A stretch of DNA of 26,507 bases, from positions 1 through 26,507 of the forward strand of contig JBIKWF010000058.1 in assembly GCA_044356455.1 (NCBI GenBank), read 5' to 3'. Positions 2,567 through 26,507 of the stretch are shown here, piece by piece. The translations under genes were made by a program, and so were the position numbers. The stretch's first letter is position 1; each line of letters opens with the position of its first letter. Source of the stretch: Bdellovibrionota bacterium (GTDB lineage: Bacteria; Bdellovibrionota_C; UBA2361; JBGSMV01). The notes under the pieces were generated by a model. The model worked only from the letters and a program-made list of their open reading frames with translations. It was not told the origin of the DNA and searched no databases.

Positions 2567-4057
2567 ATGGCGGTAGCGGTGAGGGTTCCTTTTGTTACGT
2601 CTGGTGGTCTTCTCTCTGGCGTAGTTCCGGGCGGGGCGGTTACGAAAAGCGCCTCAGGCCCGCTTGATTTACTTTCGCCTGGAATAGAGAGCGCACTTCG
2701 TGCCCCAACGGCTCTTACTCCACCGCTCGACAAAACGCTCGTAACATCTTTCTTGCGAGCTCTTGCGCGGTTGGTAGATCCAGAAAAAAACCCGATTGCG
2801 GAAGTAAGGGGAGAGCCGAGATCCGCTGCCTGGGAACTTCGCTTGTTCCCTCACCCCCAGCGGCCCTACCACGTGCCTCTTCGGGGCGACGTAGCGCTGC
2901 TTGCGGCGCGTACTCCCGATCTTACGAAAGAGTTCGTCATAGGAGTAAAGCGTTTCTGCCGCGACCAGGACATTACGCGCTTATATTTGTATGACACCAG
3001 GCTGAGTGACCGGGTAGTTGCACTTTGCAAGGTGCTTGAGCCGCATCTCAAAACACTAGTGATTCGCGATCATCACGGGGTAGGGGAAGGCGAGCAGGCA
3101 GGCGTGGCTGAACTTCGTGAGAAGTTTGGCTCAAGGGCAGACATTCGGGTTGTTTCAAAAAAAGATTCGCCGACTTGTTTTGATTTGCTTTCAGAAAATG
3201 AAGGAGAGCTCATTCGCGGTGAAGGGAAAGCGCTTGTAATTACCGCGCCTCTCGATCTCGATTCCCTGAATTGTATCGCGCGGGGCTTTGGGCTCTCGTA
3301 CCAAGGTCAGAATAATGATGTGCTCGCTATCGAAGCAAAAGATCGCGTGGCTCAGCGGGCAGGAGTTAGTCCCCTCGGAGATTTAATTCTAGACGCGCTC
3401 CGCGTGGGCCCCATGGTGCTTAAGGGGAGAAGTAGTGAAACCTTTGCCTCTCTTTTCCAGATAGCCGCGCTGCAAGCAATTCACCACGCAAGTTCATCTC
3501 ACGGTGCTGAGAAATGTTCTGATACCCCCGCCGGCGAAACCCTTTCTATGTTGGCCACTTTGGCCAAATCCGCCAAGGAATTGACTCTGGTTTCTCTGCT
3601 AAAAAGGAGCGTGGTCAGAGACCAGGTAGTATCTACCGGCGCTGCCCTCAACGTGTGCGTCGTAGATCTTGGTGATGAAGGCCTCGTTGAATCGGCGGCA
3701 CATGAAAACATGATACCGCAACGCTTTGAGCGAATCGGAGTGCGCTTGAACTTGGCTGCGGCAGAGGTTCGCCGCGAGCTGAGAAGGGAGCCAGAGCGAC
3801 TGAGGATGAGCACCCTAGAGGACGTCTGTTCTCATCTCATTCGACAAAAGGAGCTGCCGCGTAATATTTTTGTTTTTGTTCGCTATCCGGGAGAAGAAGG
3901 ACGGCAATCAGCGTTAGTGCGTTTTGCGGCGTTCGGCGAATATCGGCACGCGCCATTCGCCCAGCAACTCCCGTGGGAAATGTCACGTGTTGGGCTAGGG
4001 GTCATTGAAGACGAGAGCAAGTTCTTTGAATGGTTGAAGGCGCCAGCGGTTCTATAG
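2567..4057 (+). CDS. Hypothetical protein with DHH-like motifs
   Basis: 496-aa ORF filling the gap; LYLYDT, VIRDHH, SPTC and DLDS motifs; start codon uncertain. Confidence 0.65.
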   Translation: MAVAVRVPFVTSGGLLSGVVPGGAVTKSASGPLDLLSPGIESALRAPTALTPPLDKTLVTSFLRALARLVDPEKNPIAEVRGEPRSAAWELRLFPHPQRPYHVPLRGDVALLAARTPDLTKEFVIGVKRFCRDQDITRLYLYDTRLSDRVVALCKVLEPHLKTLVIRDHHGVGEGEQAGVAELREKFGSRADIRVVSKKDSPTCFDLLSENEGELIRGEGKALVITAPLDLDSLNCIARGFGLSYQGQNNDVLAIEAKDRVAQRAGVSPLGDLILDALRVGPMVLKGRSSETFASLFQIAALQAIHHASSSHGAEKCSDTPAGETLSMLATLAKSAKELTLVSLLKRSVVRDQVVSTGAALNVCVVDLGDEGLVESAAHENMIPQRFERIGVRLNLAAAEVRRELRREPERLRMSTLEDVCSHLIRQKELPRNIFVFVRYPGEEGRQSALVRFAAFGEYRHAPFAQQLPWEMSRVGLGVIEDESKFFEWLKAPAVL

Positions 4058-5282: not shown

Positions 5283-5410
5283 GGGATCTCTGAAAATTAC
5301 AGCTATTTCATTTTTCTCTCTGTGAGCTCTGTGTCCTCTGTGGTTTTTCAACAATTTAAATCAACCACAGAGGACACTGAGTTCACAGAGCGGACTTTTT
5401 CGGAGATTCC
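5283..5410. mobile_element. MITE-like palindromic element, family B copy 1
   Basis: Ends GGGATCTCTGAAAA / TTTTCGGAGATTCC, flanks CTAG and CTGG, internal 28-bp inverted repeat 5318-5345 / 5363-5390 (26/28 complementary). Confidence 0.7.
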
Positions 5411-6216: not shown

Positions 6217-6363
6217 TATACGCGAGAAAAACCCACCTCTGTGTACCCCTGTGCCCTCTGTGGTGAAATTCCCATGAAGATTTCACCACAGAGGACGCGA
6301 AGGTACACAGAGTTTTTTCAGGATTTCGGGTGTTTGAGGATTCTGAGGTCTTTCAGAGGTTCC
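6217..6363. mobile_element. MITE-like palindromic element, family B copy 2 (left end decayed)
   Basis: CTAA on both sides (6213-6216, 6364-6367); right end TTTCAGAGGTTCC; internal hairpin 6237-6269 / 6280-6312, similar to the copy at 8846. Confidence 0.7.
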
Positions 6364-7962: not shown

Positions 7963-8580
7963 ATGCTGAAGCGAACGGATGCGGAACTAGTAGCGGTAAT
8001 CCAAAGAGGGGACAATGAAGCCTTTGAGGAGCTGATGCAGCGCTACGTCAACAAGGCGTATGGGCTCGCGGCTCGGCTTACCAAAAACCGGGAAGATGCG
8101 GAGGAGGTGCTGCAGGATGTGTTCATCACCGTCCACCGAAAAATTTCGGCGTTTGAAGGAAAATCATCCTTCTCTAGCTGGCTTTACCGAATCACCGTAA
8201 ACGCAGCCTTGATGAAGTTAAGGAAGCGCCGGAATGACCGTCATGTCCATATAGAGGACGTAGTTCCAGAATATAGTAACAGCACTCTTCTTAAGACCTG
8301 TGCTCTGTCCGAGAGTGATGTACTTACCGACCGTCAAACCCTGCTCAGTGCTCTTGAGATGGCTATTCGAAAACTTCCGGATGAATATCGGCCGGTGTTT
8401 GTTCTTCGTGATATTGATGGGCTCACCAGTCGGCAGGTCGGAAAGATACTCCAGCTAAGCATTCCGGCGGTAAAATCGCGGCTCCATAGGTCCCGCATCA
8501 TGTTAAGACGTAAACTCTTGCCCCTCTACCGAGAAGTTTCAGAGCAGGCGAGGGCTCATATTGACAGAGAAGCGGCCTAG
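7963..8580 (+). CDS. ECF-type RNA polymerase sigma factor
   Basis: DAEEVLQDVF, FEGKSSFSSWLYRITVN (region 2); LPDEYRPVFVLRD..AVKSRLHRSR (region 4). Confidence 0.95.
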   Translation: MLKRTDAELVAVIQRGDNEAFEELMQRYVNKAYGLAARLTKNREDAEEVLQDVFITVHRKISAFEGKSSFSSWLYRITVNAALMKLRKRRNDRHVHIEDVVPEYSNSTLLKTCALSESDVLTDRQTLLSALEMAIRKLPDEYRPVFVLRDIDGLTSRQVGKILQLSIPAVKSRLHRSRIMLRRKLLPLYREVSEQARAHIDREAA

Positions 8581-8841
8581 GAGTGTGTCCCGTAGAAACA
8601 TAAATCTTCATTCTGGACACAATCCGTAGCCGCCTTTTCACGCTGCAGTTCGGTCGCGCCGAAATATGCGAAATGAAAAGGCGAGCTGAGCCCCTATTCG
8701 AGGAGATATCCGCGGAAGGGGCTACTTGCAGCACTCTAGGGAGTTCGGAGCCTTGAAGGGCGTATGAGCAATAGGGGCTAGGTGGGCTGTCCCGCTGCCA
8801 CCACAACATGTAGTGGTAGAAATTTTCTACGGGACAGACTC
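8581..8841. mobile_element. 261-bp MITE, family A copy 1
   Basis: 18-bp TIR GAGTGTGTCCCGTAGAAA / TTTCTACGGGACAGACTC; flanks CTAG/CTAA; inverted near-identical copy at 25057-25317. Confidence 0.88.
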
Positions 8842-8845
8842 CTAA

Positions 8846-8975
8846 GGAGCCTCTGAAAAACTCACCTCTATGTACCTCTGAGTCCTCTGAGCTGAAATTT
8901 TCATGAAGAAATTTACCACAGAGGACACGGAGGTACACAGAGGTGTATTAAGAATGAAGGTTTTTCAGAGGTTCG
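8846..8975. mobile_element. MITE-like palindromic element, family B copy 3
   Basis: TIR GGAGCCTCTGAAAAAC / GTTTTTCAGAGGTTCG, CTAA duplication (8842-8845, 8976-8979), internal ACCACAGAGGACACGGAGGTACACAGAG hairpin arm. Confidence 0.8.
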
Positions 8976-9152
8976 CTAACTTCTCAGGCGGTGCGCCAGG
9001 CGCGGTGCCTGAGATTCCATCTTAAGGAAGGCCAGACTTCGGCGGTCGTCTTGTGTGCGCTTGGCGCCTGTGTAATAGCGAGAAGCCTTGTGATTCCCTC
9101 CCATCTCGTACCACACTTGTAGCTCTACGATTATATTCTCCCGCGGCGCTCT

Positions 9153-13296: not shown

Positions 13297-14142
13297 ATGA
13301 GACCCCGCGCAAAAGACGAATTGTCTTCCCTCTCGGTTACGCCGTCCAAGGAGCGTGGCCAGAATTTTATTATTAATCCTTTCGTTGTTGAAAAAATTGT
13401 TCAGTTTGGGGCTCCCCAGCCACATGAAAAGCTTGTGGAGATTGGGCCAGGGCTGGGCGCGCTCACGGCTGCCCTGGTAAATGCGGCTCCCCTTACTATT
13501 GTTGAGATTGAGCCAAGATTCTGCGCTGAGCTTGCGGCGAGATTTCCTTCTCTCACGATCGTTCAGTCAGACGTGAGACGAGTAGATTTTTCTACGCTTG
13601 GCTCGGATCTCACCGTATTTGGAAATCTGCCCTATTCATTCTCTACCGATATTATTTTCCACCTTTTAAAGAATCGTAAGTCCATTCGCCGCGCAGTCAT
13701 TATGCTTCAGCGTGAGTTCGCTGAGCGTGTGGCTGCCGATCCAGGGAGTAAGACCTATGGAAGCCTCTCTGTTGCGGTTCAGCTTTATGCCGATGCGTTT
13801 CTTGGTCCTATTATTGCTGGAGACTCTTTCCATCCCCCGACCAAAGTTGAGTCTCGACTTTTGCAGCTTACGATGCGGGCGTCTCCGCTCGTCGACGTCC
13901 AGGACCTTGAGTTTTTCGAGAAGGTCGTGCGTGCGGCCTTTATGCGGCGGCGAAAAAAGATAGCAAATAGTCTATCGGGCAGTGGCATTTTTACGGAAGA
14001 GGACGTTGAGGCAGCGCTCAAGGAAACTCAGCTCGATAGTTCGCGGCGTGCTGAAAGCTTCTCAATGCATGAATTTGCGCTTCTCGCGGAAGCCCTCTAT
14101 CGACGTCGAAAGGTAGAGGGAAAAAACGACCAGGCCGAGTAG
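13297..14142 (+). CDS. rsmA: 16S rRNA adenine dimethyltransferase RsmA/KsgA
   Basis: GQNF, EIGPGLGALT, GNLPY, MLQREFAER, YGSLSV, FHPPTKVES, RRK. Confidence 0.96.
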   Translation: MRPRAKDELSSLSVTPSKERGQNFIINPFVVEKIVQFGAPQPHEKLVEIGPGLGALTAALVNAAPLTIVEIEPRFCAELAARFPSLTIVQSDVRRVDFSTLGSDLTVFGNLPYSFSTDIIFHLLKNRKSIRRAVIMLQREFAERVAADPGSKTYGSLSVAVQLYADAFLGPIIAGDSFHPPTKVESRLLQLTMRASPLVDVQDLEFFEKVVRAAFMRRRKKIANSLSGSGIFTEEDVEAALKETQLDSSRRAESFSMHEFALLAEALYRRRKVEGKNDQAE

Positions 14143-14157
14143 GCAAACGAGGAGCGT

Positions 14158-16533
14158 TTAGTTGTTCGGGTCAAACCAGGAGTAGCGAGAAAGGGCTGCA
14201 AGTATTGCAGGCCGGGAGACCGCGCAGCCAAGGATTTGAGCAAGTATCTTTGATCTCTTCACCATACTTGCCTTGGGGCAATGCTGCCGCAGTGCTTTTT
14301 CTTTATTGGAGGCAAGCGTGGTGGGATCGATCAATCCTTCTTCGAGGTAGAAGCTCATTTCTTTGCCGCCTTCTCTGCTTAAGGGATGTCCTTCGGGAAT
14401 CTCAGCTGGAAAAACCTTCTCTTTGATTGCATAGAGAACAAGGGTGCGCACGCCTGAGAGCCCAAGCAGAGTAAGAGCTTGCTTCGTGCGAAGATCTCGC
14501 CCTTCAAAACCATCGAGGGTCTCGCTGATTTCACGTAGAAATGAGTGCTTGTTCTCAAGAAGACGTTCCTCATTTTTAAATACGGTGGGCTCAAAATAAA
14601 GAGAGCGATTCTTTTTCCCACGAAGTGTGTACGGGTGATTCGCGGGGCGTTTCGCAATCGGGAACTCCAGTTCGACTATGCGTGCTGCGATGCTCAGCCG
14701 ATTAGGCTTGCAGTTAAGCATCGCGCAGAGTGAGGCGTCGCGGTCTGGTAAGCAGTCGAGGTTTGGGTAGTGCTCCCCAATATGTCGTTTCATGTTGAGC
14801 AACTTTACGCGAGGGCCAACGAGGTCTTCGTCAAAATACGCGGAAAGGGTGTCACGAGGTAACCTATGGTCTCGAGGGATTCGTGGCAGAAGAATTCGTT
14901 GGCGCAGAAGTGCCCGCCTAACTTCTTCTACGGTTCCCTTTTGTGGGTCGATTCCCAAAAGTGCACAATCTACTGCGGAGATACGGTCCTTTCGAACGTG
15001 GTCCAGGGTTGGGAATTTTTCATAGAGAGCTTTACGGGCATTTATCTTGGCCCAAGCTGGGCCAACAGCCTGAGCATTAAAATAGAGCGACCTATACTTG
15101 AGGCCCGACATCGGGTGCTTGGCAGGACGCTCAGGACTCATCAAGTCAGCGTCAATGAAGGCCTTTGCGAGCGTGGCCTGTGAGACTTCGTCTCTAGGTA
15201 GGTCCACTAGTCTAAGCAGCTCAGGAGTGCGCGAAAGGTGGTCGAGAGAAGGGTGTTTCTTGAGAAGTAAGGCTCTGACGATCTCCTTTCCTTGCGGGGG
15301 AAAGTGCTGAGGTAAAAAAGGAATCTGAGTAAATCCCAGGGATTCTCGCAAATATGCAATCTCTTTTTGGGTAGATCTGCGTATATTAGAAAAGAAGTCT
15401 AGGTTATCTGCATAGAGTGAAAGGTTTGACCACCCGGGGGAGGCGTGGGGTGCAATAGCAAGCTCACGACCAAGAAATTCGAACCCAAGCGGCTTAACTT
15501 TCCCAGCCCACAGGGGCACCGGAATTCTCTTCGGCTCTGCGCTAAAATGGTTTTGAGCGAAAGCTTCAAGTTCACTCATGCGTGTTGAAATCAAGGATTT
15601 TGCACAGCCGTCGATTTGGCCAATTTGATCGTAACGAAGACCTAGCTGACGAAGGGCAAGGTAGCGCGTTGCGCGAGGACCAAGCTGTGCATGAAGTTTC
15701 TCAAGCTCCTCATTAAATGCAGCCTTGACCGAAACTTCCTCGCGAGGTGCGCTAGCCCGGTCCTCTGCATGCGAGACCGTGCGGCCATTAATTCTATTCA
15801 ATCTTAGCGCTCTCCTATATTCTTTAGGGGAGAGTTTCGCTTGTTGCTGTACCTCTTCACTTTCTAGAGCCGGGGCAATGCCTGTTTGCTTAAAGATGCG
15901 ATCTTGTGCACGTAGTAGTTCGGCTTCTTCAGGAGTCCGGTACTGATGCTGAGCGGTCTCTTTTCGAAGAATGCTCACCGTCTTATTCAGAAGCACCCTA
16001 AGAATGAACGGGCGGTAACGCCCAAGTTCTGGATTAAAATCACCTATTGCGCGGTGTAGCTCAGAGAGAAGTTCTTCTCGTAGCGGGTACGTCCTTGCTA
16101 AAAAAGAAAACTTGTATGCTATTTTTCCGAGAAGGGGGGTCGACTGAGCGACTATCCCGGACAGAACCAAGGGGGCATTGGCGCCCTCGCGCCAGGTAGC
16201 GAGAGAGAGGACTTTGTTGCTCGCAAGTTCTGTAAGAAGCCTTCCCATTCGCACTTCACGTCGCTCGGAGGGCGGCGATCTCTCCATTGACAATACTATC
16301 TCTTCTAGCATCTGAGGAGAGAGGCCTATGGCGGGTCCTGCCTGCCGAGATTTCTTGAGACAGATGGCGTCAAGTAGAGCCTCAACCTCCTCACGTGAGA
16401 GCCGAGCAGCCTGAGCGGAGACCGGCTTTAGCTCAATGTCGACCGCGAACGGACGAGGGACAGGCGCCTCTTTGGGAGCCTCCGTAGGTGTCTGTGAGGA
16501 TGTTTCGTTTTTCGTGCTCGAGATGGGGGGCAT
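14158..16533 (-). CDS. Divergent sigma-70-like protein with C-terminal ~81-aa tandem repeats
   Basis: aa ~125-325 resemble sigma regions 2, 3 and 4; periodic PxxH, SLYF and PxLD motifs in aa ~415-791. Confidence 0.7.
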   Translation of the reverse strand: MPPISSTKNETSSQTPTEAPKEAPVPRPFAVDIELKPVSAQAARLSREEVEALLDAICLKKSRQAGPAIGLSPQMLEEIVLSMERSPPSERREVRMGRLLTELASNKVLSLATWREGANAPLVLSGIVAQSTPLLGKIAYKFSFLARTYPLREELLSELHRAIGDFNPELGRYRPFILRVLLNKTVSILRKETAQHQYRTPEEAELLRAQDRIFKQTGIAPALESEEVQQQAKLSPKEYRRALRLNRINGRTVSHAEDRASAPREEVSVKAAFNEELEKLHAQLGPRATRYLALRQLGLRYDQIGQIDGCAKSLISTRMSELEAFAQNHFSAEPKRIPVPLWAGKVKPLGFEFLGRELAIAPHASPGWSNLSLYADNLDFFSNIRRSTQKEIAYLRESLGFTQIPFLPQHFPPQGKEIVRALLLKKHPSLDHLSRTPELLRLVDLPRDEVSQATLAKAFIDADLMSPERPAKHPMSGLKYRSLYFNAQAVGPAWAKINARKALYEKFPTLDHVRKDRISAVDCALLGIDPQKGTVEEVRRALLRQRILLPRIPRDHRLPRDTLSAYFDEDLVGPRVKLLNMKRHIGEHYPNLDCLPDRDASLCAMLNCKPNRLSIAARIVELEFPIAKRPANHPYTLRGKKNRSLYFEPTVFKNEERLLENKHSFLREISETLDGFEGRDLRTKQALTLLGLSGVRTLVLYAIKEKVFPAEIPEGHPLSREGGKEMSFYLEEGLIDPTTLASNKEKALRQHCPKASMVKRSKILAQILGCAVSRPAILAALSRYSWFDPNN

Positions 16534-16609
16534 CGCCAGGTTCCAGGCTGCTAGTCAAAGTGTCCCAAGCGGGGCGTGGCTATTCACAAAGGTGCTGCAG
16601 CATTTCCAA

Positions 16610-16870
16610 TTACGAGGGCACTCGCAACCCTTGCTCTCTTTCACCTCGTTCAGCTGCTGCTCCCGCAGAGCCTCTTTTGTTGAAAAAATCATCCGGAATT
16701 GCTCCGACCAGTTTCTCGACAGAATCACGTTTCACCCTCCAGTCAGAGCCGAGCTTAAATCCCTGTATCGTGCCGTCCCGAATTAGGTCGTAAACCTTGG
16801 GGCGGTGAATGCGAAGCAGAAGCGCCACCTCTTTTACTGTTAAAAGCATCGGATTCTTTGGATTGCTCAT
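16610..16870 (-). CDS. Excisionase-like (HTH_17/BldC-type) DNA-binding protein
   Basis: LLTVKEVALLLRIHRPKVYDLIRDGTIQGFKLGSDWRV; AGGAG RBS upstream on the minus strand. Confidence 0.9.
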   Translation of the reverse strand: MSNPKNPMLLTVKEVALLLRIHRPKVYDLIRDGTIQGFKLGSDWRVKRDSVEKLVGAIPDDFFNKRGSAGAAAERGEREQGLRVPS

Positions 16871-17098
16871 ATGGACTCCTACTTCCTGAATCAGCTTTGA
16901 AGCAACGCGCTTCGCTGCGACTAACTCATGCGCACCGCAATTGCCTGTTAGGTGTCTTGCGCTGCTCTCACCACCTTAAATCGTCAGATTCGAACTCTCG
17001 ATTCATAGGTAGGAAGTGGATTTTGGGGTGTGGGAATTAGGGAGATGCTCCTAAGAGTTTCTCTTGGTGCGTAAAAGCCCAGTATTGAGGGTCCTGAT

Positions 17099-17875
17099 TT
17101 ACTTACAGGCACAGTCCTCTATTGCAGGCGAACGTGTGGCATGGACGAGGCGCGAGACCTCATCAATAAGTTCATCGAACTCTGCGGGAGCCTGCTCAAG
17201 GTAACGAATGACGTGGTGATCAGCCTCGGAATACATCTTCACTCGCTTAGAGAGGGAGTTCTGTGCTGCGTCCATAAGCCGACGCGGAATTTCGCCCGGG
17301 ATTACCTTATCTTGTCCACCTGCAAGGATGAGCAAGTGTCCCCTGAAGTGAGCAAGAATCTCCCAGGCGTCGCTCTGCTCCCAGCTGCGCTCTTGCCGGA
17401 TAATGCGAGTGAACTCCGGCCCAAAGGGAACTCGGTAGGCATCAGGGTGGTAGACGGCGGGAACGCTGAGCACAAGAACCTCAGGTTCTACAGTCTGGCT
17501 TAGACGGACTGCATTATACGCGCCCATGCTAGACCCCCACAGAACTTGCGGGCGCTTCAGGCACACCTGCTTGATTATTTCCTCGGCTTGTTCGTCTCGG
17601 GCCGCAAGGCTTGATGCACTAAGCTCCCCGCCGGTTTTGCCGTGCCCTACAAAGTCAAAGGAAATGCTACCTAGTCCCGCGGCGGCCAAACGCTCTCGTA
17701 ACGTAGTGAAGCGAGCGGATTCTCCAGCGCCTGCTCCATGCAATAAAAGTATTGGACCGGGTTCTCGGATACTCGCTGCGGAGGGGGCCCCTCCAGGTGC
17801 GTGGAGGAGCGTGCCTCTAAGCGCGAAGGTGTTCCAAGGAACGGAAAAATTTGTTTCAAGGGGGATTTCTGGCAT
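17099..17875 (-). CDS. Alpha/beta-fold hydrolase
   Basis: LLLHGAG, FDFVGHG, nucleophile GSSMG, Asp in GQDKVIP, His in ADH. Confidence 0.9.
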   Translation of the reverse strand: MPEIPLETNFSVPWNTFALRGTLLHAPGGAPSAASIREPGPILLLHGAGAGESARFTTLRERLAAAGLGSISFDFVGHGKTGGELSASSLAARDEQAEEIIKQVCLKRPQVLWGSSMGAYNAVRLSQTVEPEVLVLSVPAVYHPDAYRVPFGPEFTRIIRQERSWEQSDAWEILAHFRGHLLILAGGQDKVIPGEIPRRLMDAAQNSLSKRVKMYSEADHHVIRYLEQAPAEFDELIDEVSRLVHATRSPAIEDCACK

Positions 17876-22238: not shown

Positions 22239-23482
22239 TGGCCAAGCGCTATCTTTTTGTGGTCCCGCGTTACGGCGAGAAGGTAGGCGGCGGTGCCGAG
22301 ACGTTAGTACGAGAGGTTGCGGAGCGCTTAGCTTTGCGCGGAGATACTATCGAGGTCTTTACTACCTGCGCGCTAGATAACAGGACTTGGGACAATGTAC
22401 TTCCCGAAGGCAGGTCCACGGAAGGGGGAGTGGTCGTCAGCAGGTTCCCTGTGGACGCGCGTAGCCTTGATATTTGGGTGCCCCTGCAAATTAGAATTAG
22501 TGAAGGCATGCTGCTTACTCCCGATGAGCAGCTCCAGTGGCTCGAGCATGGTGTTAACTCCTCTGCGCTCTATGCCGAACTCCACCGTAGATCGAGTGAA
22601 TTTGCGGCTTGTTTTTTTGCGCCCTATCTTTTTGGCACCACGTTTTTTGGATCTCTCGTAGACCCAGGGCGCTCCGTGCTGATTCCTTGCTTGCACGATG
22701 AGCACTATGCCTACGTGGACGTTATTCGGAGCATGTTTCGCCTTACGCGAGGCTGCTTGTTTAATGCGGCGCCCGAGATGGATCTTGCGCGCGGCCTCTA
22801 CGGGCACCTAACGGGCGGCGAAGTGGGGATGGGCTTTGACCCATTCCCTGCGAAGTACGTTTCTGAGCTTACGCCCTATTTTGAGGACGCCTCTCCTTAT
22901 GTGCTTTACCTTGGCCGAAAGGAGACTGGGAAAAATGCCCACGTGCTCGTCGATAACTTCATGGCCTTTAAGGATGGTCTTGCAGAAGGGGCGCCAGGAA
23001 AGAACCTCAAGCTAGTGGTGGTTGGCGGCGGCTCGTTTGCCGATCTGTATAGGCCTCAGGCTCTAAACCGTTCCGATATTGTTGATCTCGCTCACGTATC
23101 GGAGCGTGATAAGCATCGCCTGGTAAAGCATGCGCTCGTGCTCTGTCAGCCCTCCACCAATGAGTCCTTCTCGATTGTTCTTATGGAGGCCTGGCTCCTT
23201 GGAGCTCCTGTGCTCGTGCATGCGGGATGCCCGGTGACTAGGGCGCATGCGATTGAAGCGGGAGGTGGGCTTTATTTTGGCGATGCTGAAGAGTTCTCAG
23301 CGGTGCTCGGGCAACTTCTTGCTGACGAGGTGAAAAGCTCTAGCAGTTTAAGAGCCAGACTTTCGGCAGGGGGCGCGGCCTACGTGCGCTCGAAGTATGA
23401 CTGGGCTGAAGTGCTTGCCCGGTTTGACAGGGTAGTGAAAGAGATTTTCACCGAAGCGCCCGAATCAATTGCGGCACGCTAA
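22238..23482 (+). CDS. Glycosyltransferase family 4
   Basis: VVPRYG..GGAE, TTCA, PCLHDE, YLGRKETGKN, ESFSIVLMEAW (EX7E); GTG overlaps the upstream TAG. Confidence 0.92.
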   Translation: MAKRYLFVVPRYGEKVGGGAETLVREVAERLALRGDTIEVFTTCALDNRTWDNVLPEGRSTEGGVVVSRFPVDARSLDIWVPLQIRISEGMLLTPDEQLQWLEHGVNSSALYAELHRRSSEFAACFFAPYLFGTTFFGSLVDPGRSVLIPCLHDEHYAYVDVIRSMFRLTRGCLFNAAPEMDLARGLYGHLTGGEVGMGFDPFPAKYVSELTPYFEDASPYVLYLGRKETGKNAHVLVDNFMAFKDGLAEGAPGKNLKLVVVGGGSFADLYRPQALNRSDIVDLAHVSERDKHRLVKHALVLCQPSTNESFSIVLMEAWLLGAPVLVHAGCPVTRAHAIEAGGGLYFGDAEEFSAVLGQLLADEVKSSSSLRARLSAGGAAYVRSKYDWAEVLARFDRVVKEIFTEAPESIAAR

Positions 23483-24838
23483 GAAATTGTTAACCTCCTC
23501 CATGATCATCTGCGCTATGGCTGGACCTTCCCTGTGAAGCGCAAGGGGTGCCTTTTCAAACCCCTCGCTCCTCAGCCAAGAAATGGAAAGCATCTCAATT
23601 TCCATGATCAGCCCATCGCGAAGAGTTCTTACGTCCCCAGAAGAGGGCAATGAGTTTTCAATCACACGTCGAATCCGAGTCATGCTCTCGGATATTCGCA
23701 AGATATCGCGGGGGGCTAGCACAGGTGTCACACCTGCATATGTCACGTTTCGACAGTGGCTTACCTTAAGGGCGACTTCTGCTAGTTCGAGTTGGTGACT
23801 CGGTAGTTGCCCTTGAGAACTTTGTCCTTGCCTAAGATAGCGGCGCAAAGCACCGAGCTTAGCAAAAAGAGTCTGCGCTGCGTTTGTGTCCTGAGAGTGA
23901 GTTACTACGGCACCGAGCTCGCGGTACAATTCTTCAAACCGCTGAAAAGCTGCCTCTATCGGAGAGGAAGAAGCACTCAAGGCACTCTTGGCAGCAGTAT
24001 CCTGACCTGGCTCGGCGTCTGCGCTCCCCGATAAAGAAGCGATTTCGAGGCTGCCTCCACATTCGGGGGCAGCGCCAAGAGGTAACGAGGAGGCGACATG
24101 GGGCACTGCAAGTGAATCAGGCAGCACCTCTAAAGGGGCTAAGCCTGCCTTTGATGAAGCCTGAGAAAACTTAGGGGCTTCTCTCGGTGTGCGCATAGCG
24201 AGGTCAGGTGGGCCGGAGAAGTGCGGCATTCTAAGCTCCTGAGCTCTTGTGCTTAAATTTTTCGAGGATGCCTTATTAGGAGAGGATGGCCCTCGCGCTT
24301 CAATGCCCGAAACTCTCTCGTGCGCGCGGACGGGGCGCGGTGGATCTGACGGCGGATCTTTTTCAGGATGCACAATTTTTCTGGGGAGGGAGGTGCGGGG
24401 TACTTTGCGAGGGGGAGGTCTAAGTGACTCAAACAGGTCTTGGAAAGTCTCTCTTTCGGGCTGGCAATCCTGGGGGGCAAGAGGAGGGGGCTCATACCCA
24501 AAAAGGGTAGACGGAGTTTTTTCCTGGCATCCAATGGCATATTCCCTGGCTGCCACACAAAATCTTGCAAGACCGTCCCCCGCTTTGGGGCTTAGGCGAA
24601 TGGTCCCGGATGCAAGATGAGCAAAGCTAAAATCATCAAGCAGGTCCCGCGAGGAGAGACTAAGGATATCAGCAGAGGAAATCCCGTCCTCCCTTAACAG
24701 CTGAAAAGCCTGGACCCCGAGGGTTCGTAATTCATTTGGTAGTTTCTGCTTAAGGTTGTCCAGCTCGGGATCCGTCCACGGGCGCTGGCCTCTTTGCCTT
24801 GGGCCTGCCGATTTTGATAGCTCTGCACCGTATGTCAT
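23465..24838 (-). CDS. Hypothetical protein: SAM/alpha-CTD-like N-terminus, Pro/Ser-rich linker, helical C-terminus
   Basis: 457-aa ORF with GAGGAG RBS on the minus strand; converges on the GT gene with an 18-bp overlap. Confidence 0.7.
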   Translation of the reverse strand: MTYGAELSKSAGPRQRGQRPWTDPELDNLKQKLPNELRTLGVQAFQLLREDGISSADILSLSSRDLLDDFSFAHLASGTIRLSPKAGDGLARFCVAAREYAIGCQEKTPSTLFGYEPPPLAPQDCQPERETFQDLFESLRPPPRKVPRTSLPRKIVHPEKDPPSDPPRPVRAHERVSGIEARGPSSPNKASSKNLSTRAQELRMPHFSGPPDLAMRTPREAPKFSQASSKAGLAPLEVLPDSLAVPHVASSLPLGAAPECGGSLEIASLSGSADAEPGQDTAAKSALSASSSPIEAAFQRFEELYRELGAVVTHSQDTNAAQTLFAKLGALRRYLRQGQSSQGQLPSHQLELAEVALKVSHCRNVTYAGVTPVLAPRDILRISESMTRIRRVIENSLPSSGDVRTLRDGLIMEIEMLSISWLRSEGFEKAPLALHREGPAIAQMIMEEVNNFLACRN

Positions 24839-24948: not shown

Positions 24949-25052
24949 GGAGTATCTGAAGAATCTGCTACGCGTAATCTGCGTCCTTCGCGTTATTCAA
25001 TGCTTCTCAATAAACGCTGACTACGCGCAGCGCTGGATTTCTGAGAAGCGCC
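24949..25052. mobile_element. Degenerate family B-like element, copy 5
   Basis: TTAG-GGAGTATCTGAAGAATC ... GATTTCTGAGAAGCGCC-CTAG; core CCTTCGCGTTATTCAATGCTTCTCAATAAACG resembles the copy 4 core CCTCCGCGTTATTTAATAGTTTTCAAATAACG. Confidence 0.45.
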
Positions 25053-25056
25053 CTAG

Positions 25057-26507
<1,451 letters not shown>

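Follow-up and report, generated by a model that had tools for sequence, protein, structure and literature searches.

A group 3 sigma-factor variant with an undescribed tandem-repeat arm and a putative DNA-targeting role in a Bdellovibrionota bacterium

We analysed a 26,507-nucleotide stretch of DNA (the window) from a Bdellovibrionota bacterium, in which an open reading frame of 791 codons runs on the reverse strand between a gene that we take, from its sequence motifs, to be ksgA/rsmA and a gene encoding an HTH_17 domain. The frame, its parts in the order of translation and its two neighbours are listed below.

14158..16533, reverse strand: 791-residue ORF (N-terminal extension, sigma-28-derived head, cap domain and tandem repeats of about 77 residues)
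16399..16533, reverse strand: N-terminus (residues 1-45), Ser/Thr/Pro-rich, predicted unstructured; coil in a low-confidence single-sequence model
16228..16398, reverse strand: pre-sigma extension (residues 46-102); helices in the low-confidence single-sequence model
15946..16227, reverse strand: sigma2 with a region 1.2-like helix (residues 103-196); F176 corresponds to FliA Y76 and sigma70 Y430, and K184, S187 and R190 to FliA positions 84, 87 and 90
15784..15945, reverse strand: sigma3 (residues 197-250), from AF2 helices and hhalign alignment to FliA sigma3
15742..15783, reverse strand: sigma3.2-like linker (residues 251-264), low confidence and shorter than that of FliA; pLDDT below 50 at model residues 150-162
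15541..15741, reverse strand: sigma4 helix-turn-helix (residues 265-331); S224-equivalent retained, Q228-equivalent replaced by Thr
15280..15516, reverse strand: helical cap domain (residues about 340-418), which precedes the array in sigma-headed and nuclease-tailed proteins alike
15043..15279, reverse strand: repeat 1 (residues about 419-497), by repeat HMM
14806..15042, reverse strand: repeat 2 (residues about 498-576), by repeat HMM
14557..14805, reverse strand: repeat 3 (residues about 577-659), by repeat HMM
14317..14556, reverse strand: repeat 4 (residues about 660-739), by repeat HMM
14167..14316, reverse strand: repeat 5, helical half only (residues about 740-789)
16610..16870, reverse strand: HTH_17 gene (Pfam E 2.9e-14), upstream, 76 bp before the ORF start
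13297..14142, forward strand: ksgA/rsmA-like gene, convergent with the 791-residue ORF

The start codon of the ORF is uncertain, the database gene call (P0002) beginning at Met96; the extension at residues 46-102 is unconserved, and N-termini vary among relatives. The first 35 residues include 15 that are Ser, Thr or Pro, whereas 1000 long ORFs from the same genome average 7.5, and residues 1-45 are a possible export signal. The composition of the ORF (GC 0.516, GC3 0.497) is like that of its neighbours and gave no sign of recent transfer, and sigma-70-type promoter matches in 13900-17300 numbered 0, with 1.5 expected. By synteny the HTH_17 gene is a conserved neighbour of ksgA and is not specific to this ORF. 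The interval between the two genes is empty in genome G032, holds an argS-like gene in G034 and other genes in G033 and G079, while in G031 they lie on different contigs; judging by this gene order, the interval is a variable cargo slot. In G034, of the same genus, the family member lies elsewhere, beside tgt. We found no adjacent anti-sigma gene, no flagellar or secretion locus and no chaperone gene next to the ORF. Elsewhere the window contains a presumed tgt-like gene (248-2326, forward) fused to a C-terminal region that we take, again from motifs, to be MnmC-like methyltransferase, the N-terminal part being shared with a frame of similar length in G034; two long ORFs with low-complexity N-termini and no significant Pfam match (23465-24838, reverse, and 2567-4057, forward); and scattered palindromic repeat elements that are present many times genome-wide (8573-8978, 25038-25325, 6226-6312 and 5283-5405).

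The original prediction had placed a divergent sigma-70 domain within this frame, and profile and structure searches confirmed it: residues about 103-331 are sigma2, sigma3 and sigma4. A profile built from relatives gave the head 43 bits, while none of 500 shuffled sequences exceeded 9; hhalign aligned the family head with FliA at 98.3% probability over 165 columns, sigma factors made up all of the best 50 matches listed in a structural fold search, and a language-model result independently supports the assignment. The single-sequence AF2 model was useless (pLDDT 35.6); the alignment-based model was confident (pLDDT 90.6), its alignment containing 8 stand-alone FliA-like proteins in 69 rows, a possible bias in favour of a sigma fold for the head. 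As in the sigma-70 family, sigma2 and sigma4 occur in order with a sigma fold, and, as in group 3, sigma3 is present and region 1.1 absent. The protein lies below curated sigma thresholds, with 14.1 bits for Sigma70_r4_2 (Pfam; cut-off 25.7) and no NCBIfam sigma match; its relatives P0005, P0006, P0010 and L063 lie above such thresholds.

The group 3-like class proposed earlier can be narrowed. Among solved structures a family profile of 11 rows, the 791-residue protein included, matched FliA best (E 1e-21), followed by WhiG, SigF and SigB, with SigA at about 1e-11, which suggests that the head is nearest to FliA/WhiG (sigma-28) within group 3 of the sigma-70 family. TIGR02479 gave no match to the protein itself, and the best relative reached 66.9 bits against a cut-off of 189.6. 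As to descent from the FliA clade, profiles favour FliA/WhiG and a 24-row tree gave no supported clade for the 791-residue protein, which sits there on a long branch; since its placement is unsupported and the best-scoring match of one relative (L016) is SigB/F/G, repeated independent sigma-repeat fusions are possible. Sigma profile matches occur in 91 of 91 genomes of the order, the top stand-alone ones being a conserved FliA of about 250 residues, split over two contig ends in the source genome. Because this canonical FliA is a separate conserved gene across the order, the 791-residue protein is a free paralogue.

To compare functional residues we used the Pseudomonas aeruginosa sigma-28, which, as described in PMC12784957, is without W433/W434; in it -11A stacks against Y76, melting relies on R82, and the residues employed are R80, D87 and R97 for the -10 region and Q228 for -35. 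Fourteen heads were aligned, namely the 791-residue protein and 13 others with recognisable sigma2, one of which (L063) has tandem cap domains where the others have the array; six sigma4-only heads were excluded. Position 76 is aromatic in 13 of the 14 (F176 here), 12 have Arg at position 84 (where FliA has Ala and this protein K184), D87 is retained in 11 (S187 here) and R90 in 12 (R190 here), and position 57 is small in 12. By contrast with these retained positions, R80 remains in two heads, R82 in one and Q228 in four, and the -35 helix varies freely among relatives. None of the five promoter-reading residues R80, R82, D87, R97 and Q228 is kept in the 791-residue protein, in which region 2.2 carries L155 and E158 at the positions of FliA G54 and G57 (Ala in most relatives) and a four-residue deletion in the core-binding helix is possible. 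The erosion described in the original prediction therefore holds for the core-binding region of this copy, most relatives having Ala there, and holds only in part for the melting aromatics, since a W-dyad is normally missing from sigma-28 factors, as it is from that of P. aeruginosa (PMC12784957), and F176 preserves the Y430/Y76 aromatic. Taken together, the alignment points to a family with its own conserved sigma2 signature and relaxed base reading, not random decay; the 791-residue protein appears to be among its most eroded members and may keep only part of the activity.

That prediction, which took the protein for an unusual alternative sigma factor, a sigma mimic or decoy, or a repurposed DNA-binding protein, is correct as to the sigma domains of the head; the cap and the repeat half, its novel part, had been missed. 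The C-terminal 450 residues consist of the rigid cap and about 4.5 tandem repeats of about 77 residues, with pLDDT mostly above 90, and the half-repeat ending is found in several relatives as well. Each unit comprises four helices, a Pro/His loop and an S-x-Y-x-D motif, its core (TLDD..LA..LG...IA..LV..G) being helix-turn-helix-like, and has two variable polar/basic patches, one where the third helix begins, the other in the loop before S-x-Y. The repeat of the 791-residue protein gave nothing significant against Pfam, PHROGs, NCBIfam, PDB sequences (profile searches, E 0.15 or worse) or the ESM Atlas (no feature match, TM at most 0.37), and no significant match to a known DNA-binding domain; the repeats of relatives gave partial or sub-threshold Pfam matches only (linker histone, MarR, wHTH-PRTase, DEP). 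The fold-search lists for the whole model were filled by the sigma head, which does not make the repeat fold new. We rejected sigma3 and sigma4 as possible sources of the repeat, hhalign giving probabilities of 1-3%. In one relative (L063:6624-8924, forward; G080:C39) the sigma head is followed by four tandem caps and a half repeat, so that the cap itself is repeatable.

Neither the 791-residue protein nor its 51 relatives (best five families per protein for the latter) gave a Pfam match to TALE, STAR or mTERF, and no similarity of the repeat to these was found among PDB sequences. The near-identical repeats with few variable code residues that mark the TALE/STAR/mTERF type are absent from the 791-residue protein, whose repeats are 21-26% identical to one another. 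Within-protein identity is 24% in sigma-headed proteins and averages 41% (up to 67%) in nuclease-tailed ones, and the nearest repeat lies in the same protein for 4 of 82 sigma-headed repeats versus 35 of 85 nuclease-tailed ones. The repeats of sigma-headed proteins thus appear old and divergent, with no TALE-like code evident in them. The array of the 791-residue protein carries +3.5 charges per repeat (pI 9.6); across 58 proteins array pI ranges from 5.0 to 10.1, and basic charge is not general.

The protein had also been called an orphan, and a word-indexed homologue search did return its own shorter gene call alone, whereas a full HMMER search of 1.84 billion representatives found 51 proteins besides that call. 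Sorted with custom HMMs and Pfam, these representatives (50%-identity clusters) comprise 13 with a sigma-like head, seven of which have sigma2 and sigma4 and six mainly sigma4, with little beyond it left; 19 that share a C-terminal tail, which is cut short in one of them; and 19 with neither, several of them partial. Of 124 genomes in the phylum, 10 were matched by a two-repeat profile; they all belong to this order and span 9 genera. With the 791-residue protein as search sequence, 9 of the order's 91 genomes gave matches, itself included, and the homologue in G079 spans residues 106-787 at 27% identity (about 680 residues) with the domain order kept. Database labels of the carriers in the order are Dadabacteria, Deltaproteobacteria and Bdellovibrionales bacterium; labelled carriers of repeat plus tail are Woesearchaeota, Altiarchaeota and one contig labelled Methanosarcinales, and of 401 genomes sampled from the phylum of the Woesearchaeota carrier, 6 contain the repeat. 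Viral contigs searched with P0006 and metagenome contigs searched with the 791-residue protein yielded no relatives. On an archaeal contig (G393:C12), five or more clustered genes in tandem (among them L162, L166, L169 and L170) consist only of repeats, in a divergent version. The source genome encodes an 865-residue paralogue with cap and array, in which profiles detected no sigma head (G000:C176:24460-27054, forward), and, near a contig end, a truncated 54-residue duplicate of the junction of cap and repeat 1 (G000:C198:105-270, forward; 93% nucleotide identity over 130 bases).

Nucleases of the PD-(D/E)xK class are known with repeated DNA-binding modules of homing-endonuclease-like kind, and repeats followed by a nuclease tail are the layout of modular site-specific nucleases. 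The tail of the 19 representatives has an invariant Glu, Asp and Glu-x-Lys and weak matches to PDDEXK_3 (7.7e-5, one of seven members), RE_ApaLI (two of seven) and a PHROG endonuclease (4.6e-4), and is probably PD-(D/E)xK-like. The archaeal relatives, in which repeats precede this E...D...ExK tail, resemble such modular nucleases; the 791-residue protein differs in having no nuclease domain by profile search. In the bacterial order the tail occurs in 10 of 91 genomes, behind other sequences and never behind this repeat. Two unrelated repeat types are also followed by the tail. One is in the source genome, in a 1209-residue frame open at a contig end (G000:C97:53586-57212, reverse; L060:5587-9213), where about eight highly similar beta-rich repeats of about 100 residues, of two alternating types with few varying positions, precede the PD-(D/E)xK-like tail as the last part; related proteins occur in several genomes of the order. 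This protein looks more TALE-like than the 791-residue one, and an AP2-like nature of its repeats found no support in Pfam. The other, on a Peribacteraceae contig (L059:2919-5987, forward), is a third repeat type of about 100 residues containing Cys.

Compared with known systems, the 791-residue protein shares with FliA/WhiG the order and fold of sigma2-sigma3-sigma4, the missing W-dyad, the Y76 aromatic, R90 and the best family-profile match; it differs in being only about 15-21% identical, in about 460 extra C-terminal residues, in lying outside a flagellar locus and in the loss of R80, R82, D87, R97 and Q228, its relatives being far below the TIGR02479 cut-off. In dCas12f-sigmaE, according to the preprint text (bioRxiv 10.1101/2025.06.10.658880), sigma2 retains the ability to bind core and to melt DNA at lower specificity, and sigma4 acts as an adaptor. 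Both systems would combine reduced promoter reading and a C-terminal extension with targeting by another module, which is demonstrated there and inferred here; the present protein differs in its group 3 head and fused protein repeat array, with no Cas protein or guide RNA noticed beside its gene. The ECF41 and ECF42 factors, as PMC7826278 presents them, likewise have a sigma core, a long C-terminal extension (SnoaL or TPR) and no adjacent anti-sigma gene, but they are group 4 proteins with no sigma3 and with known extension folds, whereas the repeat of about 77 residues matches no Pfam family. With the TALE, STAR and pTERF/mTERF proteins treated in PMC11417379 the array has in common helical tandem repeats, variable positions and fusion to transcription or nuclease modules, and it differs in the length of its unit, in showing no sequence match and in the low repeat-to-repeat identity of the sigma form. 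That paper covers other repeats, its main text making no mention of sigma factors or archaea; its supplementary lists, with thousands of predicted DNA-binding repeat proteins, lay outside the literature in which we found no description of the repeat or the sigma-repeat architecture, and could contain it.

That the same cap and repeats occur with a sigma head and with a nuclease-like tail suggests a swappable DNA-targeting module, which might steer transcription. On this basis we tentatively propose, at a probability of roughly 0.4, that the array binds DNA and positions or tethers a sigma head which, though poor at reading promoters, continues to engage core polymerase; the protein would be a transcription factor derived from sigma-28, specific to this lineage and equipped with a targeting arm of its own. 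The array would bind double-stranded DNA, as we infer from its partner domains, helix-turn-helix-like spacing and charge; the head would dock on core RNA polymerase and open DNA through the retained aromatic. The base-reading residues of FliA being lost from the head (R80, R82 and Q228, and in this protein D87 too), site choice would be delegated to the arm, and transcription would be started or modulated at a few loci, independently of a flagellar promoter, by a logic much like that of dCas12f for its sigmaE, of which this would be a protein-guided analogue. We counted in its favour the fold, the affinity to FliA, the family's own residue signature, the separate FliA, the array shared with nuclease-tailed proteins, the basic array of this protein, the precedent of dCas12f-sigmaE and a FliA-ParB-like fusion in G028. 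The latter (L064:2915-7357, reverse; G028:C29) is a FliA-like head fused to two modules in 1481 residues, and in G025 a double module gene lies directly downstream of a FliA-like gene (L068:757-5196, reverse; G025:C1); from motif reading we take both pairs of modules to be ParB-like. Counted against it were the repeat's missing DNA-binding-domain match, the spread of array pI, low repeat identity, the fact that the order's tail never follows the repeat, eroded region 2.2, the missing D87, the sigma4-only relatives, the headless C176 paralogue, alignment bias and the unsupported tree position. A bolder form, which we regard as doubtful, holds that the unit of about 77 residues is an undescribed modular, sequence-specific DNA-binding repeat, joined here to a promoter-blind sigma-28 head and in DPANN archaea to a nuclease, and that the protein is a one-protein, protein-programmed initiator, a natural bacterial equivalent of a TALE activator, possibly delivered into prey.

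The eroded region 2.2 of this copy and the six relatives that keep mainly sigma4 would also fit a head that no longer works with RNA polymerase, in a DNA-binding repressor or nucleoid-type protein using the sigma4 helix-turn-helix and the array, or in a mimic titrating anti-sigmas such as FlgM, for which the genome has three matches above the curated cut-off beside several FliA paralogues. We consider this unlikely: most full heads conserve the sigma2 residues (Arg at 84 in 12 of 14) in a complete three-domain layout, and a mimic would have no need of an array. Slightly less likely still would be an ordinary alternative sigma factor whose head picks the promoter and whose repeat tail is a ligand- or protein-sensing extension, like the TPR of ECF42 or the SnoaL of ECF41. 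Here it weighs that the same array occurs with a nuclease-like tail, and alone, in archaea, which to our knowledge have no sigma factors, and that the -35 helix is free to vary among relatives, against a conserved promoter. C-terminal extensions are nevertheless the second most common ECF regulatory mode according to PMC7826278, no anti-sigma gene is adjacent, and several arrays are acidic.

Export of the protein as an effector that engages prey or host polymerase and DNA by TALE-like logic seems improbable. It would draw on the Ser/Thr/Pro-rich N-terminus and on an extra type III-like system: in the source genome 24 flagellin-N matches exceed the cut-off, some of them carrying large insertions of a repeat or beta-rich kind, and there are three FlhA/SctV and three FliF/SctJ-like genes, including two extra SctV/SctJ-like sets, with one SctV beside a FliA paralogue (C7) and another beside a Tad-like cluster (C184). 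DPANN archaea, the other labelled carriers, are host-dependent. The combination of SctV and a Tad-like cluster recalls the Myxococcus Kil/T3SS* killing system described in PMC12075869. At least 12 Ser, Thr or Pro in the first 35 residues were found in 6 of 14 sigma-headed proteins versus 11.6% of background ORFs, a background that includes off-frame ORFs; such N-termini are, however, common among the genome's orphans, the start codon is uncertain, and the gene lies outside secretion loci with no chaperone neighbour. Co-occurrence does not discriminate either, since 77 of the order's 91 genomes have at least three SctJ/FliF matches, none of which exceeds the YscJ cut-off, and 10 have the repeat. 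Most improbable in our view is a fusion that is decaying or spreading selfishly and now has no cellular role, as might be read from the patchy distribution (10 of 124 genomes), the different loci in sister genomes, the truncated duplicate on C198 and the long branch; against this stand an uninterrupted frame of 2.4 kb with a confident model and the conserved domain order of the distant G079 homologue.

In summary, the 791-residue protein is a real group 3 sigma variant with an undescribed repeat arm and a putative function. Even should this copy prove inactive, it defines a repeat family that lacks annotation and numbers at least 50 clusters at the 50% identity level. Promoter choice by sigma factors normally rests on their own sigma2 and sigma4 surfaces. 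An exception in print is the RNA-guided partner of sigma (bioRxiv 10.1101/2025.06.10.658880), and a fused repeat array would, if the proposed targeting arm is real, be a further route to sigma targeting. A repeat paired both with a sigma head and with a nuclease tail, in two domains of life, would then be a candidate programmable DNA-binding scaffold.
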